Positions 5,312 to 40,590 are shown, numbered from the stretch's first letter. The stretch: DNA of 44,513 bases from a virus (IMGVR_UViG_2703718788_000013); one strand, 5' to 3'. Numbers and translations: made by a program. Notes: a model not told the origin generated them from the letters alone.

Positions 5312-5369
5312 AAAAAGGGCGGCAGAGCAGTCACGGAGTAAAACTGATACCGCCAAACGCCACCAGAAA
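5312..5369 (-). ncRNA. dicF: DicF-like small RNA (ftsZ translation inhibitor family) with intrinsic terminator
   Basis: Minus-strand sequence TTTTCTGGTGGCGTTTGGCGGTATCAGTTTTACTCCGTGACTGCTCTGCCGCCCTTTTT matches the remembered E. coli DicF sequence with one mismatch; GGCGG...CCGCC stem then U-run; no ORF in the region. Confidence 0.7.
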
Positions 5370-11775: not shown

Positions 11776-11986
11776 TTTCATATTGGCGAGGTAACGGTAG
11801 TTAAGTAGAATGGCTGTGGGTGCTTGAGGCTATCTGCCTCGGGCATGAACACCAACGGCAGATAGAGAAAAGCCCCAGTTAACATTACGCGTCCTGCAAG
11901 ACGCTTAACATTAATCTGAGGCCAATTTCATGCTAGACACATGTAGGTTAGCCTCTTACGTGCCGAAAGGCAAGGAGAAGCAGGCT

Positions 11987-12142
11987 ATGAAGCAGCAAAA
12001 GGCGATGTTAATCGCCCTGATCGTCATCTGTTTAACCGTCATAGTGACGGCACTGGTAACGAGGAAAGACCTCTGCGAGGTACGAATCCGAACCGACCAG
12101 ACGGAGGTCGCTGTCTTCACAGCTTACGAACCTGAGGAGTAA
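11987..12142 (+). CDS. hok: Hok/Gef-family type I toxin
   Basis: 51-aa product MKQQKAMLIALIVICLTVIVTALVTRKDLCEVRIRTDQTEVAVFTAYEPEE, near-identical to remembered HokD/RelF; AAGGAGAAG ribosome-binding site; 8-bp hairpin at 12151-12170. Confidence 0.85.
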   Translation: MKQQKAMLIALIVICLTVIVTALVTRKDLCEVRIRTDQTEVAVFTAYEPEE

Positions 12143-14907: not shown

Positions 14908-14983
14908 GGCCCTTTAGCTCAGTGGTGAGAGCGAGCGACTCATAATCGCCAGGTCGCTGGTTCAAATCCAGCAAGGGCCACCA
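14908..14983 (+). tRNA. tRNA with CAT anticodon, ileX-like (tRNA-Ile2 or Met)
   Basis: 76-nt cloverleaf, acceptor GGCCCTT/AAGGGCC, anticodon loop CTCATAA, CCA end; resembles remembered E. coli ileX. Confidence 0.8.
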
Positions 14984-14984
14984 A

Positions 14985-15061
14985 CCGCCACTAGCTCATC
15001 AGGAAAGAGCGTCAACCCTTTAAGTTGAGTGTGCGAGGTTCGAGTCCCCGGTGGCGGTCCA
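14985..15061 (+). tRNA. tRNA-like gene, apparent anticodon TTT (Lys-like), non-canonical features
   Basis: Acceptor CCGCCAC/GTGGCGG, anticodon stem TCAAC/GTTGA, loop CCTTTAA (C at position 33), T-loop TTCGAGT, CCA end; A-C mismatch in T-stem. Confidence 0.55.
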
Positions 15062-15063
15062 GT

Positions 15064-15139
<76 letters not shown>

Positions 15140-15142
15140 TAT

Positions 15143-15217
<75 letters not shown>

Positions 15218-16255: not shown

Positions 16256-16659
16256 AGGTCTGCTCCGGCAGGCTTTTTTTATTCCGGCATATATAACTAT
16301 GGAGTATTGCGACAACCTGATAAAAGTCTGCATATCGCGATCCAACGGTAGAAGCGATAAACGGGCTGAGCGATATGTTTCCAGAGGAGAAGAGGTTGAG
16401 CGATACGAAGAAACAGCTAAGTATATTAAGAGAATGTTAATGTGCTTCATTGCTGATCAGAAGCTATCGGGATAATCATCAGTTTTTTGTATTGAGGCTC
16501 GCTACGGCGGGCCTTTTTCACATCCGCGTCACGCCCGGCGCACATCACATCAGATAACGCTATACAAAAGGCATCTTCGGGTGCCTTTGATGGGGGGGCG
16601 GGCCGCTGGTGGCTTTTTTTGTTTCCATTACACAGCCCCCGCATCTGCGAGGTGGGGTT

Positions 16660-16875
16660 ATGAAATCCATGGATAAGTTAACAACGGGTGTCGCCTATGG
16701 CACCTCAGCAGGTAGTGCCGGGTACTGGTTTTTACAGTTGCTCGATAAAGTCACGCCCTCACAGTGGGCGGCAATAGGTGTGCTGGGTAGTCTGGTATTT
16801 GGCTTGCTGACGTATCTGACAAACCTTTATTTCAAGATTAAAGAAGATAAGCGTAAGGCTGCGAGAGGTGAATAA
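16660..16875 (+). CDS. Class II holin (phage 21 S-type pinholin)
   Basis: 71 aa MKSMDKL... with dual-start motif and two hydrophobic segments; very similar to remembered S21. Confidence 0.9.
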
Positions 16876-17372
16876 TGTCGCCATCATTACGCAAGGCTGT
16901 TGCTGCTGCTATTGGTGGTGGGGCTGTTGCCATAGCGTCTGTGCTCATCACTGGTCCGAGTGGTGACGATGGTCTGGAAGGTGTCAGCTACATACCATAC
17001 AAAGATATCGTTGGCGTATGGACTGTATGTCACGGACACACCGGAAAAGACATCATTCCCGGTAAAACGTATACCGAAGCAGAATGCAAAGCCCTCCTGA
17101 ATAAAGACCTTGCCACGGTCGCCAGACAAATTAACCCGTACATCAAAGTCGATATACCGGAAACAACGCGCGGCGCTCTTTACTCGTTCGTTTACAACGT
17201 GGGTGCTGGTAATTTCAGAACATCGACGCTTCTTCGCAAAATAAACCAGGGCGATATCAAAGGCGCATGTGATCAGCTACGGCGCTGGACATACGCTGGC
17301 GGTAAGCAATGGAAAGGGCTGATGACTCGCCGTGAGATTGAGCGTGAAGTCTGTTTATGGGGGCAACAATGA
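16875..17372 (+). CDS. SAR endolysin (lysozyme with N-terminal signal-anchor-release domain)
   Basis: 165 aa; N-terminus [23 protein letters not shown]; start overlaps holin stop (TAATG). Confidence 0.9.
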
Positions 17373-17836
17373 GCAGAGTTACCGCGATTATCTCCACACT
17401 GGTTATCTGCATCATCGTCTGCCTGTCGTTGGCGGTCAATCATTACCGTGATAATGCCATCGCCTACAAAGAACAGCGTGATAAAAAAGTCAGTGAGCTG
17501 AAGCAGGCGATCGCCACCATCGCTGACATGCAGCAGCGTCAGCGTGATGTTGCTGCGCTAGATGCAAAGTACTTGAGAGAATTAGCCAATGCGAAAGCTG
17601 AAAATGAAACTCTGCGCGCTGATGTTGCCGCTGGTCGTAAGCGCCTGCGGGTCAATGCCAGTTGCTCCGCAGCCGTGCGTGAGGCCACCGGCCCCACCCG
17701 CGTGGATAATGCAACCAGCCCCCGACTGGCAGACACCGCTGAGCGGGATTATTTCACCCTCAGAGAACGGCTGATGACAATGCAAAAGCAACTGGAAGGG
17801 GCACAGGAATATATCCGTACCCAGTGTATACCGTGA
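17369..17836 (+). CDS. Rz-like inner-membrane spanin
   Basis: ATG at 17369 overlapping endolysin stop; N-terminal transmembrane segment then coiled-coil-like sequence. Confidence 0.85.
17589..17774 (+). CDS. Rz1-like outer-membrane lipoprotein spanin, embedded in Rz in the +1 frame
   Basis: 61 aa with lipobox VVSAC and proline-rich mature part; entirely inside Rz. Confidence 0.85.
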
Positions 17837-18180
17837 TGTTTTGTTATAAAGGTGTTGATGGTTGTGTTAGGGGGGATTTAACAAAAAGCCAGTTCCGGAC
17901 TTTATAGTGTGCTCAGATCATGGCCAAAAACGATTTCTGTGATAAATATTTTGAATATTATTTACAGGTAAATGACGTGGGTCGCATGAATGAAAATATT
18001 ACAATAGAGTATTAAGTATATGTTCATATTGTATGGGCTGAGAAGGCAAAACACGGTAATTCCTTATGTTGCTATGATACTTGATTGGCAGAATAGTTAT
18101 TTGGTCTTGAGTATATAGTCAGCGTTTTTTGTTCAGTAATAGTTCTTTCAGTAAAAAACAATAAATAGCGTGATTATTTC

Positions 18181-18238
18181 TGTTTGTTATTTATATTTTT
18201 GTTTGTTGTTTATATTTTTGTTTGTTGTTTTATTGTCT
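18181..18238. repeat. Three tandem copies of a roughly 19-bp T-rich repeat upstream of the PerC-like gene
   Basis: TGTTTGTTATTTATATTTT / TGTTTGTTGTTTATATTTT / TGTTTGTTGTTTTATTG in an AT-rich intergenic region. Confidence 0.6.
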
Positions 18239-18320
18239 TTCTGTGGAGGGGGGAGTATTGTTCCCTTATTAAGGGCAGGTAAATTTAGAATGGTAATCTG
18301 TAGATAATTGGAGGTCACTT

Positions 18321-18635
18321 ATGCTACATGATCACCTGGCTGAATGTCTGGAGAAAAAAGGACTGTACCGGAGAGCGGCTGAACGATGGGCAAAAGTGAT
18401 GGTACAGCTAAGTGATGATCAGAAAAGAAAAATCGCGGCACAGAAACGAGCAGAGTGTTTGCGTAAGGCGCGCCGGACTTCGGTTGCACCGGTGAATCTG
18501 ACAGAAATAAAGCAAGCGGTCAACAGACTACATTCTGAGTTGGGAATGGGATTTGAAGAGCGGCGGATATTCCGACGATATAAAGGGACAGGAGAACAGA
18601 ATACGTCCGGAAACGCGCGGTCAAAAAAATGCTAA
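18321..18635 (+). CDS. PerC-family transcriptional regulator (Pch-like)
   Basis: 104 aa; GGAGG 7 nt upstream; N-terminal ...LEKKGLYRRAAERW... matches remembered PerC/Pch pattern. Confidence 0.6.
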   Translation: MLHDHLAECLEKKGLYRRAAERWAKVMVQLSDDQKRKIAAQKRAECLRKARRTSVAPVNLTEIKQAVNRLHSELGMGFEERRIFRRYKGTGEQNTSGNARSKKC

Positions 18636-18675
18636 AAAATATCTGAGAAAGTTATTGCCTGTTACCATAATAAAA

Positions 18676-18699
18676 AGCGACTTTAGTAGTCGCTTTTTG
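18676..18699 (+). terminator. Intrinsic terminator after PerC-like gene
   Basis: AGCGACT TTAGT AGTCGCT followed by TTTTT. Confidence 0.7.
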
Positions 18700-18803
18700 T
18701 GTCATATATACGTCGTTTAAGTAAACCTGTCTGAACAGGTGCTCTGGTCGTGTTTGTTTTTGTTGGGTACAAATTGAGAATGTTTTTCATTAATTAGTCT
18801 TCT

Positions 18804-18941
18804 TCAGCAGACTTCAATAATCCACGCTGAAAAAATTCCTGAACCTTTCTGACCAAAAGCGATGTTAATTTGTTCAATCATCTGGTTTGGAAATCGGATG
18901 TTGAGGGCTGTTGTTCTGCGGGTTCTGTTCTTTGATGACAT
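18804..18941 (-). CDS. Small hypothetical protein (45 aa) in the lysis-to-cos interval
   Basis: Translated by hand: MSSKNRTRRTTALNIRFPNQMIEQINIAFGQKGSGIFSAWIIEVC; below ORF-track length cutoff. Confidence 0.35.
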   Translation of the reverse strand: MSSKNRTRRTTALNIRFPNQMIEQINIAFGQKGSGIFSAWIIEVC

Positions 18942-19099
18942 AATGTTGCCCCATATTCAGTGTTGCTGGTTTGTATTTTCTGAAGTTGCTTTTACGTTAA
19001 TTTGATGTGGATCAATTGATGCAATGCCTGCGTCATAATTGATCATTTCTTGTGGTTAGATTGCGTACACACACGTTCTGATGAGTCATCATGCAGATG

Positions 19100-19339
19100 A
19101 TAACTATTCTCATTTTTTGTGGGTCCTTTCCGGCGATCTGACAGGCTACGGGGCGGAAGGCGCGCGGATTTTCGCTATTTATGAAAATTTTCCGGTTTAA
19201 GGCGTTTCCGTTCTTCTTCTCCGTAACGTCATGTTTTTATTTAAAACCCCCCCTGAAAAGAAAGGAAACGACAGGTGCTGAAAACGGGCTTTTTGGCCTC
19301 TGTCGTTTCCTTTCTCTGTTTTTGTCCGTGGAATGAACA
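19100..19339. other. cos site (cosN/cosB) of a lambda-type packaging system
   Basis: Sequence from about 19147 through the Nu1 start closely follows the remembered lambda left-end sequence, with a different central hexamer in the putative 12-nt cohesive end (GGGCGGAAGGCG at about 19151-19162). Confidence 0.75.
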
Positions 19340-19859
19340 ATGGAAGTCAACAAAAAGCAGCTGGCTGACATTTTCGGTGCGAGTATCCGTACCATTCAGA
19401 ACTGGCAGGAGCAGGGAATGCCCGTTCTGCGAGGCGGTGGCAAGGGTAATGAGGTGCTTTATGATTCTGCCGCCGTCATAAAATGGTATGCCGAAAGGGA
19501 TGCTGAAATTGAGAACGAAAAGCTGCGCCGGGAGGTTGAAGAACTGCGGCTGGCCAGCGAGGCAGATCTTCAACCCGGAACACTTGAATTTGAGCGCCAT
19601 CGCCTGACTCGTGCTCAGGCGACGGCGCAGGAACTGAAAAATGCCAAAGAATCGGCTGAAGTGGTGGAAACCGCATTCTGTACTTTCGTGCTGTCGCGTA
19701 TAGCAAGGGAAATATCCAGTATTCTCGACGGTATTCCTCTGTCGGTGCAGCGACGTTTTCCTGAGCTGGATAACCGGCATGTTGATTTCCTGAAACGGGA
19801 TATCATCAAAGCCATGAACAAAGCAGCCGCGCTGGATGAACTGATACCGGGGTTGCTGA

Positions 19860-19885
<26 letters not shown>
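19340..19885 (+). CDS. nu1: Terminase small subunit Nu1
   Basis: 181 aa, near-identical to remembered lambda Nu1 (MEVNKKQLADIFGASIRTIQNWQEQGMPV...). Confidence 0.95.
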
Positions 19886-23572
<3,687 letters not shown>

Positions 23573-39999: not shown

Positions 40000-40590
40000 A
40001 TGCCATTGATAACATCCAGCCTTTCATCAAATGTTGCTTTGCAGAGTATTGAAATATTACGTGAAGCTGCCAGACAAAACCTGATTACGAAAGCTATTAC
40101 TATAAATGGGCAGAAAGTTGGTATTCATTATTATCACCGCCCTGACGTTTTTCTAGTTTCTGGTTGTAAGGATGGGATGTTAAAAACATTATTAGAGTTA
40201 GGGTTAAATGGTAGCAATGAGTCAGCCAAAAGGCTTCGTTCATGGCAAATTTCCTCTGTAATTGATACTCATCTGAGTTTTTTACCATTAGGTATATGCT
40301 ATAAAATACTTTCAAGTTCTTTTCCTGTACATTCGGAAGAGGTTTTTTTTCCAGAAGAACATCTCAAGTGTCCAATAATATTAGATGCTCCAGATAATGG
40401 TGTTTTTATAAAGAACTCTGTAAGTGCAAAAGTTTGTAACCTATATGATAAAAATGCAATGTTAAAGTTAGTTATATCTGGTTCTCCACATCCATTAAGT
40501 AGAGAGCCAATAACAGAATCAATGATTATGAGAAAAGATGAATGTTATTTTGATCCCAAAACAGAGTCTTTTGTTGTAAATGATGTTTAA
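40000..40590 (+). CDS. nleG: NleG-like type III effector (U-box E3 ubiquitin ligase family)
   Basis: 196 aa in AT-rich DNA; C-terminal region HLKCPIILDAPDNGVFIKNSVSAKVCNLYD...SPHPLSREPIT resembles NleG U-box domain as remembered. Confidence 0.6.
   Translation: MPLITSSLSSNVALQSIEILREAARQNLITKAITINGQKVGIHYYHRPDVFLVSGCKDGMLKTLLELGLNGSNESAKRLRSWQISSVIDTHLSFLPLGICYKILSSSFPVHSEEVFFPEEHLKCPIILDAPDNGVFIKNSVSAKVCNLYDKNAMLKLVISGSPHPLSREPITESMIMRKDECYFDPKTESFVVNDV

Follow-up and report, generated by a model that had tools for sequence, protein, structure and literature searches.

A group-1 pch module with a variable 19-bp upstream repeat in an effector-carrying lambdoid prophage

A group-1 pch gene between the lysis genes and cos

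The window analysed here is the whole 44,513-nt stretch of viral DNA IMGVR_UViG_2703718788_000013, and our subject is its pch gene (18321–18635, + strand), a group-1 homologue of PerC and the positional counterpart of pchC of strain Sakai. The gene starts with ATG and encodes 104 amino acids. In agreement with the initial annotation, which had proposed a 104-aa PerC-family protein, the product gives a full-length match to the Pfam family PerC (PF06069; 144.4 bits against a cutoff of 22.6, E 1.3e-42), with residues 1–89 lying on model positions 1–89 of 90, and RefSeq labels it 'PerC family transcriptional regulator' (WP_059222289.1). The homology to PerC and to PchA, PchB and PchC that the same annotation had named as a check is present in both comparisons. 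The window protein aligns without gaps with Sakai PchA, PchB and PchC (104 aa each) at 95, 96 and 95% identity, respectively, from which it differs by four or five conservative substitutions, namely V38I, P54S, S56A and V83I together with one paralogue-specific residue each; the C-terminal tail (residues 90–104) is identical in all of them. A more distant match is found in PerC of the enteropathogenic E. coli (EPEC) plasmid pMAR7 (NC_010862.1), which shares 48.3% identity over residues 2–88 (tblastn, E 6e-18) and whose gene adjoins perA and perB. By its sequence, the pch product is a group-1 Pch protein of the PerC family.

Comparison with other PerC-family proteins places the window protein further. 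PerC of the EPEC adherence factor (EAF) plasmid is the founding member of the Pfam family and activates the LEE1 promoter in the enterocyte effacement locus (LEE) as Pch does (PMC4764244). By comparison, it is plasmid-borne within the per operon and only 89 aa long, without the C-terminal tail, and is dispensable for LEE expression in EPEC under many conditions, whereas pch is reported to be essential in enterohaemorrhagic E. coli (EHEC) (PMC4764244). PchD and PchE of O157:H7 (groups 2 and 3) are likewise PerC-family paralogues on horizontally acquired elements, but differ in size and sequence and have little effect on LEE (PMC6265319); PchE is reported to repress curli and flagella (PMC6265319; PMC7369912). 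The window protein falls within group 1 and apart from PchD/PchE, a placement made by clustering rather than by direct alignment. Ler resembles Pch in being a small, horizontally acquired DNA-binding protein that relieves H-NS silencing at AT-rich virulence loci, and the two act together; the likeness is one of mechanism and not of family membership, as Ler carries an H-NS-type DNA-binding domain. No such C-terminal domain was found in the pch product by Pfam and PDB searches at E values up to 1, in which PerC was the only Pfam domain and no solved relative appeared in PDB. NCBIfam holds no PerC model and gave a single noise match of 14.6 bits. Consistent with these results, Pch has been described as lacking similarity to known DNA-binding proteins (PMC4764244).

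The gene lies between the lysis genes and cos, where the initial annotation had put it. The Rz-type lysis (spanin) gene at 17357–17836 (+), the last of the lysis cassette, with Rz1 embedded at 17589–17774, forms the left boundary of the module; RefSeq names it 'lysis protein', and Pfam Phage_lysis and Rz1 match the same genes in related loci. On the right, a cosN equivalent (GGGCGGAAGGCG, 19151–19162), located by alignment with the left end of lambda (NC_001416), bounds the late-region moron slot and is followed directly by a segment of 94% identity to lambda from cosB to the start of nu1 (19340–19885; open reading frame (ORF) list and RefSeq annotation). The cosN equivalent itself differs from the lambda sequence GGGCGGCGACCT at 5 of 12 positions.

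Downstream of pch, a perfect inverted repeat with 11-nt arms (18672–18682 and 18688–18698; AAAAAGCGACT and AGTCGCTTTTT), a 5-nt loop and flanking A5 and T5 runs folds as a 13-bp hairpin that is kept in all alleles compared. It forms an intrinsic terminator (18672–18698), as expected from the initial annotation of a terminator after pch, and its A run and T run, placed on opposite sides, let it work in either direction, for pch (+) and for the convergent DUF3950 gene (–). A simple terminator scan missed this hairpin, probably because the T run belongs to the stem. The DUF3950 gene (18804–18941, – strand) encodes a YnfO/YlcI-like protein of 45 aa (Pfam E 1.6e-10; PHROG phrog_949, E 1.1e-22); the YnfO-like neighbour of pch in O157 has 74 aa.

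The whole 880-bp module, comprising upstream region, gene and terminator, aligns with the modules of Sakai pchA (ECs_1091, prophage Sp4), pchB (ECs_2182, Sp11) and pchC (ECs_2737, Sp14) and with the monkey-isolate allele A25, which together with the window make up the five alleles of our module alignment. The Sakai genes share the same order of Rz, AT-rich region, pch, bidirectional terminator, YnfO-like gene and cos/nu1. Conservation is high over the initial ~300 bp of the intergenic sequence, around the start of translation, in the gene and at the terminator; the most variable part is the T-rich stretch at about 18150–18270 of the window, which is unlike all three Sakai alleles. The pch feature is thus an already known kind of system in its usual prophage place.

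Among 5426 complete E. coli genomes, 673 contain the module, in a median of three copies, and group-1 pch together with its module is found in LEE-carrying Escherichia lineages (E. coli attaching and effacing pathotypes and E. albertii). The window allele is far rarer. For the 884 bases around pch, a single complete genome gives a 100% match, namely the E. coli 377323_2f chromosome (NZ_CP039404.1), which among the 5426 is the only one to carry the module at an identity of at least 99% and the only one with the T-rich region of the window allele. The exact 104-aa protein is present in 514 blocks of public assemblies, and loci encoding it have flanking DNA diverged by up to 3%. On complete chromosomes with the identical protein, the lysis–pch–nu1 segment is 97–99.97% identical to window 16821–20135; several of these chromosomes belong to accession series whose plasmids carry the label Escherichia albertii. 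Judged from the accession numbers, this suggests a prophage lineage common to E. albertii and stx2f E. coli O63:H6.

Upstream region, 19-bp repeat and candidate promoter

From the Rz stop to the start codon of pch, 484 bp (17837–18320, + strand) form an AT-rich, putatively regulatory region homologous to the upstream regions of Sakai pchA, pchB and pchC. Its GC content of 0.322, compared with 0.504 for the whole window, agrees with the very AT-rich interval of ~480 bp described initially, and the T-rich core (18150–18240) reaches a GC content of 0.187 with 58% T. The H-NS binding prediction that the initial annotation suggested lent no support, however: the high-affinity motif TCGATAAATT, allowing up to 2 mismatches, has no site in 17837–18320, and its 41 sites across the window against 40.7 expected show no enrichment, so that AT content is what points to the interval as a putative H-NS target. 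On the + strand, a terminator scan of 17837–18320, from Rz to pch, detected nothing terminator-like, and Rfam in E-value mode over 16400–19600 returned chance-level matches only, with no known small RNA (sRNA) or leader in the module.

A small ORF of 31 aa (17920–18015, +) within this region matches residues 1–31 of the 46-position profile of PHROG phrog_2157 (46 aa; E 7.6e-21). A stop, followed by a 1-base deletion, cuts the ORF at residue 31 both in the window and in the 10 fetched loci that encode the identical Pch protein, whereas it is intact at 46 aa upstream of Sakai pchA, pchB and pchC and in the monkey-isolate allele. Differences among the full-length alleles look mostly non-synonymous by eye. 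Because of these differences and the truncation in the window lineage, the ORF is doubtful as a gene. Its first 16 codons are invariant even in DNA and may represent regulatory rather than coding sequence.

The T-rich stretch contains a 19-bp tandem repeat at 18175–18234 (Tandem Repeats Finder: period 19, 3.2 copies, 92% matches, score 99), in which a repeat search recognizes three in-register 19-nt copies at 18175, 18194 and 18213 with 84–89% identity. The three 19-bp repeats noted initially at 18181–18238 are the same array in another phase. We compared the array of the window with those of 10 fetched loci with the identical protein, 5 IMG/VR contigs, 2 metagenome contigs and the monkey-isolate allele. 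Two fixed anchors lie 58 nt apart in 11 of these loci, 77 nt apart in six others as well as the window, and 96 nt apart in one locus, corresponding to two, three or four units in front of the same Pch protein, with the window one unit above the commonest form; the distance from the array to the ATG stays constant at 73–74 nt. Since related loci differ by exact multiples of 19 bp, the repeat goes beyond chance low complexity. The 77-nt form exists in two sequences, ...GTTGTTTA... and ...GTTATTTA..., in which the same 19 bp have been duplicated in two registers; at least two independent expansions have therefore taken place. The first 77-nt type has expanded further to give the 96-nt form, and a shorter form, equivalent to one unit, was not found in IMG/VR. 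The 19-bp repeat is a genuine variable number tandem repeat (VNTR), and its copy-number variation between related prophages is a new detail of an otherwise known system.

An A-rich tract at 18154–18167 (AAAAACAATAAATA) is 85–92% complementary to each of the T-rich repeat units (18188–18240). If the region is transcribed, the tract would be predicted to pair with the units in weak alternative hairpins, which become more numerous with each added unit.

The array ends at the –35 element of a candidate sigma-70 promoter (18233–18261, +), which consists of TTGTCT (18233–18238), a 17-bp spacer and TATTGT (18256–18261). A relaxed hexamer scan, which yields several weak candidates, gives it a score of 8/12. 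Sakai pchA, pchB and pchC and the monkey-isolate allele retain the two hexamers at the same 17-bp distance, and the spacer sequence differs widely. From this conservation we infer that 18233–18261 is the best candidate for the pch promoter, with a leader of ~50 nt; the open literature text gave no mapped pch transcription start. The best relaxed score, 10/12, belongs to TTAACA-19-TATAGT at 17878–17908, which has a 19-bp spacer and would leave a leader of ~400 nt, and is retained as an alternative only. In the spacer and leader of the candidate promoter, the window and the monkey-isolate allele carry a G-rich insert (GGAGGGGGGAG...TTCCC, 18246–18270) that is predicted to fold as a short GC hairpin and replaces the T-rich stretch of Sakai pchA, pchB and pchC. 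This insert and the expanded 19-bp repeat distinguish the T-rich segment of the window from the Sakai alleles; the window further differs from them in the truncation of the upstream 46-aa ORF and in a stronger predicted hairpin at the start codon.

Predicted start-region structure and complementarity to DicF

The translation start of pch is predicted to lie in a hairpin (18292–18336, +), with the AUG (18321–18323) in the stem and the Shine–Dalgarno (SD) sequence GGAGG (18310–18314) in or near the apical loop. The 61-nt fold of 18285–18345 has a predicted free energy of –15.1 kcal/mol (z –1.98), and the same structure recurs in longer folds. The predicted hairpin is stronger in the window allele and the monkey-isolate allele than in Sakai pchA, pchB and pchC.

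The early region of the same prophage encodes the sRNA DicF (5317–5368, – strand), known from published work to activate translation of pchA, which matches Rfam RF00039 over its full length with 76.4 bits against a gathering score of 48. Compared with the K-12-type DicF sequence used as reference, it differs by one base in the 5' single-stranded seed (GUGGCG against GUGACG). A segment of the pch coding sequence at +88 to +105 (18408–18425, +) shows complementarity to the SD/start region as well as to the DicF 5' end, and is thus a candidate site for pairing with either. Pairing with DicF was judged from its 16-nt single-stranded 5' end; unconstrained RNAduplex and cofold runs with the full-length sRNA produced duplexes with the mRNA of unrealistic length and were not used. 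For the window, RNAduplex predicts –10.6 kcal/mol between the SD region and the coding segment and –10.9 kcal/mol between that segment and the 5' 16 nt of its own DicF; the corresponding values at the same site of Sakai pchA are –12.6 kcal/mol and, with K-12-type DicF, –11.4 kcal/mol. The dual complementarity is present in the window allele and in Sakai pchA, pchB and pchC, and a synonymous C-to-T change in the window allele keeps both pairings through G–U wobbles. The long-range pairing of the SD region with the coding sequence is not the predicted minimum free energy structure. For pchA, PMC7769764 describes pairing of the coding sequence with the ribosome-binding region, relieved at low oxygen when DicF pairs with the coding sequence. 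The predicted complementarity of the coding segment fits this published mechanism.

Prophage setting and proposed control of LEE expression

RefSeq annotation of the 377323_2f chromosome shows a lambdoid prophage next to tRNA-Ser (serU), between mtfA and zinT. Its early part runs from a frameshifted integrase through exonuclease, kil/dicB remnants, a cI/cro-type switch and replication genes to hok/sok, Q, four tRNA genes, the holin–lysozyme–Rz cassette, the PerC-family gene and the DUF3950 gene, and these are followed by nu1/terminase, head and tail genes and, finally, effector genes. Downstream of the tail fibre genes, the window encodes an NleG family effector (40000–40590, +), a HECT-type E3 ubiquitin ligase effector (40641–43013, +) and NleC (43267–44259, +), and a TccP-like (EspF-repeat) gene and espJ lie just past its end. 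Sakai Sp14, which carries pchC, shares the serU site, the layout and cargo of the espJ/tccP type. The effector cargo of the window prophage exceeds that of Sp14 at this site. The hok/sok type I toxin–antitoxin locus (11818–11992, +; Rfam sok, 115 bits) upstream of Q and the four-tRNA cluster (14908–15214, +) between Q and the lysis genes are usual for such prophages. The integrase gene (1008–2058, –) is annotated as frameshifted, so that the prophage may be unable to excise; the late region looks complete.

Strain 377323_2f is an stx2f-positive EHEC of serotype O63:H6 and sequence type 583 (ST583), positive for eae, tir, espA, espF, bfpA, espJ, nleC and tccP (PMC8534868); the presence of LEE in this host is taken from eae, tir, espA and espF in Table 1 of that paper. 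Its 85-kb bfp plasmid (NZ_CP039405.1) carries the bfp operon and two perA-like helix-turn-helix (HTH) regulator genes flanked by insertion sequence (IS) remnants. Neither perB nor perC is annotated on the plasmid, and tblastn with Pch gave a best E value of 0.7 there. The chromosome has two places that match the pch module, and with no perC on the bfp plasmid these two copies are therefore the only PerC-family genes found in 377323_2f. The second place has a T-rich region of a different type.

The function of group-1 Pch proteins has been established in O157. There, adherence and full ler and espA expression depend on pchA, pchB and pchC but not on pchD or pchE (PMC6265319). The experimental demonstration that ler/LEE expression and adherence need PchA, PchB and PchC is that of Iyoda & Watanabe 2004, cited in both PMC6265319 and PMC4764244. 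Activation of LEE1 by Pch requires a promoter under H-NS/StpA/Hha/YdgT silencing; Pch reduces the occupancy by H-NS in vivo, excludes H-NS from LEE1 DNA in vitro and enhances Ler-dependent activation of other LEE promoters (PMC4764244). Signals reported for pchA and pchB comprise LrhA, Lrp with butyrate, LeuO, NtrC/sigma-S and SOS induction; the upstream region of pchA responds to LrhA (PMC4456613) and to Lrp/butyrate (PMC7279287), and the title of Honda et al. 2009, cited in PMC4456613, states that pchA, pchB and pchC are differentially regulated by LrhA. SOS induction strongly raises group-1 pch transcripts, and pchC expressed from a plasmid is active in O157 (PMC6265319).

Taken together, the window contains a complete, horizontally acquired pch moron in an Sp14/CP-933U-like, effector-carrying lambdoid prophage at serU, and its product would very probably activate LEE by anti-silencing. 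The group-1 identity of the protein, the effector genes of the prophage and the LEE-positive host also support the initial description of the locus as a virulence-regulatory moron. By analogy with the published O157 work on pchA, pchB and pchC, Pch would occupy AT-rich DNA in the regulatory region of LEE1 (ler) and at further virulence loci bound by H-NS and displace the H-NS/StpA/Hha silencing complex there; Ler would then be expressed and would in turn switch on the LEE type III secretion system (T3SS) and the prophage-borne effector genes. Expression of pch itself is most likely controlled at three levels. Its own weak promoter in the AT-rich region, for which 18233–18261 directly 3' of the T-rich repeat is the candidate, may respond to host signals, as the O157 upstream region is LrhA- and Lrp/butyrate-responsive and probably silenced by H-NS, a silencing that 17837–18320 may share. 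On prophage induction, the Q-antiterminated late transcript may read through into pch; such read-through is plausible because no terminator-like site lies between Rz and pch, and it fits the SOS induction of group-1 pch genes. At the level of translation, the start region would be sequestered by mRNA structure and freed when prophage-encoded DicF pairs at about +88 to +105.

Several observations weigh against this interpretation. Conservation across the module is lowest in the promoter-proximal T-rich region, which is unlike any of the three Sakai alleles, and the high-affinity H-NS motif is missing from 17837–18320 and unenriched in the window. The candidate promoter, with its score of only 8/12, is not kept in the divergent alleles of the E. 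albertii type strain and Escherichia sp., and a strict scan for the sigma-70 consensus found no + strand promoter upstream of pch. For the window allele, a local hairpin is predicted at the start codon in place of the long-range pairing that DicF would relieve. Furthermore, PchA and PchB carry most of the activity in O157 and are targets of LrhA, and pchC of the serU prophage is mentioned less (PMC4456613); its window counterpart could therefore be weakly expressed.

One alternative is that the window gene is an intact but largely silent or redundant paralogue, with the other chromosomal copy doing the work and the 19-bp changes reflecting neutral slippage. The two module-matching places in 377323_2f, the naming of PchA and PchB as the main activators and LrhA targets in O157, the difference of the T-rich region from all Sakai alleles, the truncated small ORF and the frameshifted integrase of a decaying element would all suit this account. 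We nevertheless consider it quite unlikely, as the exact protein has stayed unchanged in loci with flank divergence of up to 3% and is listed in 514 assembly blocks, which argues for purifying selection; the SD sequence, start region, terminator and candidate promoter hexamers are all intact; and plasmid-borne pchC is active in O157. The repeat invites a different reading, in which it acts as a contingency-type tuning element: two, three or four units would move the conserved distal regulatory block by 19 or 38 bp with respect to the core promoter or lengthen an H-NS- or UP-like T-tract, and the unit number may thereby set Pch and hence LEE expression levels, or their responsiveness to signals, in different lineages with the coding sequence unchanged. 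The variation in copy number before an identical protein, the at least two independent duplications evident from the two three-unit variants, the position of the array at the –35 element of the best-conserved promoter candidate, and its place in the most variable stretch of a module whose pchA, pchB and pchC versions are, by the title cited above, differentially regulated by LrhA speak for such tuning. Yet short direct repeats in T-rich DNA slip readily without selection, 19 bp does not correspond to whole turns of the helix, so that no obvious design is apparent, the promoter position is itself inferred, and the sample of 19 loci plus the window is small; on balance, a tuning role is unlikely.

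It is also conceivable, though highly improbable, that pch serves the phage as a late anti-H-NS factor that aids phage gene expression or packaging, with LEE activation as a side effect. Its position in the late operon without a preceding terminator and the rise of group-1 pch transcripts on SOS induction would accord with a phage function, as would the presence of the family among PHROGs phage-protein families, some of them annotated 'transcriptional activator', and of PerC-family genes on plasmids of Salmonella, Klebsiella and Pantoea, hosts not known to carry LEE. Against a phage function, group-1 pch and its module are found in LEE-carrying Escherichia lineages and on prophages with T3SS effectors, deletion of pch abolishes LEE expression with no reported phage phenotype, and pch comes with a regulated upstream region and a terminator of its own. 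A pch moron acting on LEE therefore remains the preferred reading.

Our analysis places a known system in a further lineage rather than describing a new one; what it adds is modest, namely the repeat polymorphism, the candidate promoter and the DicF gene on the same prophage. For the haemolytic uraemic syndrome (HUS)-associated stx2f O63:H6 strain, an intact group-1 pch module would explain how LEE is switched on despite a bfp plasmid without perC, and promoter-proximal repeat variation is a candidate cause of strain-to-strain differences in LEE expression.

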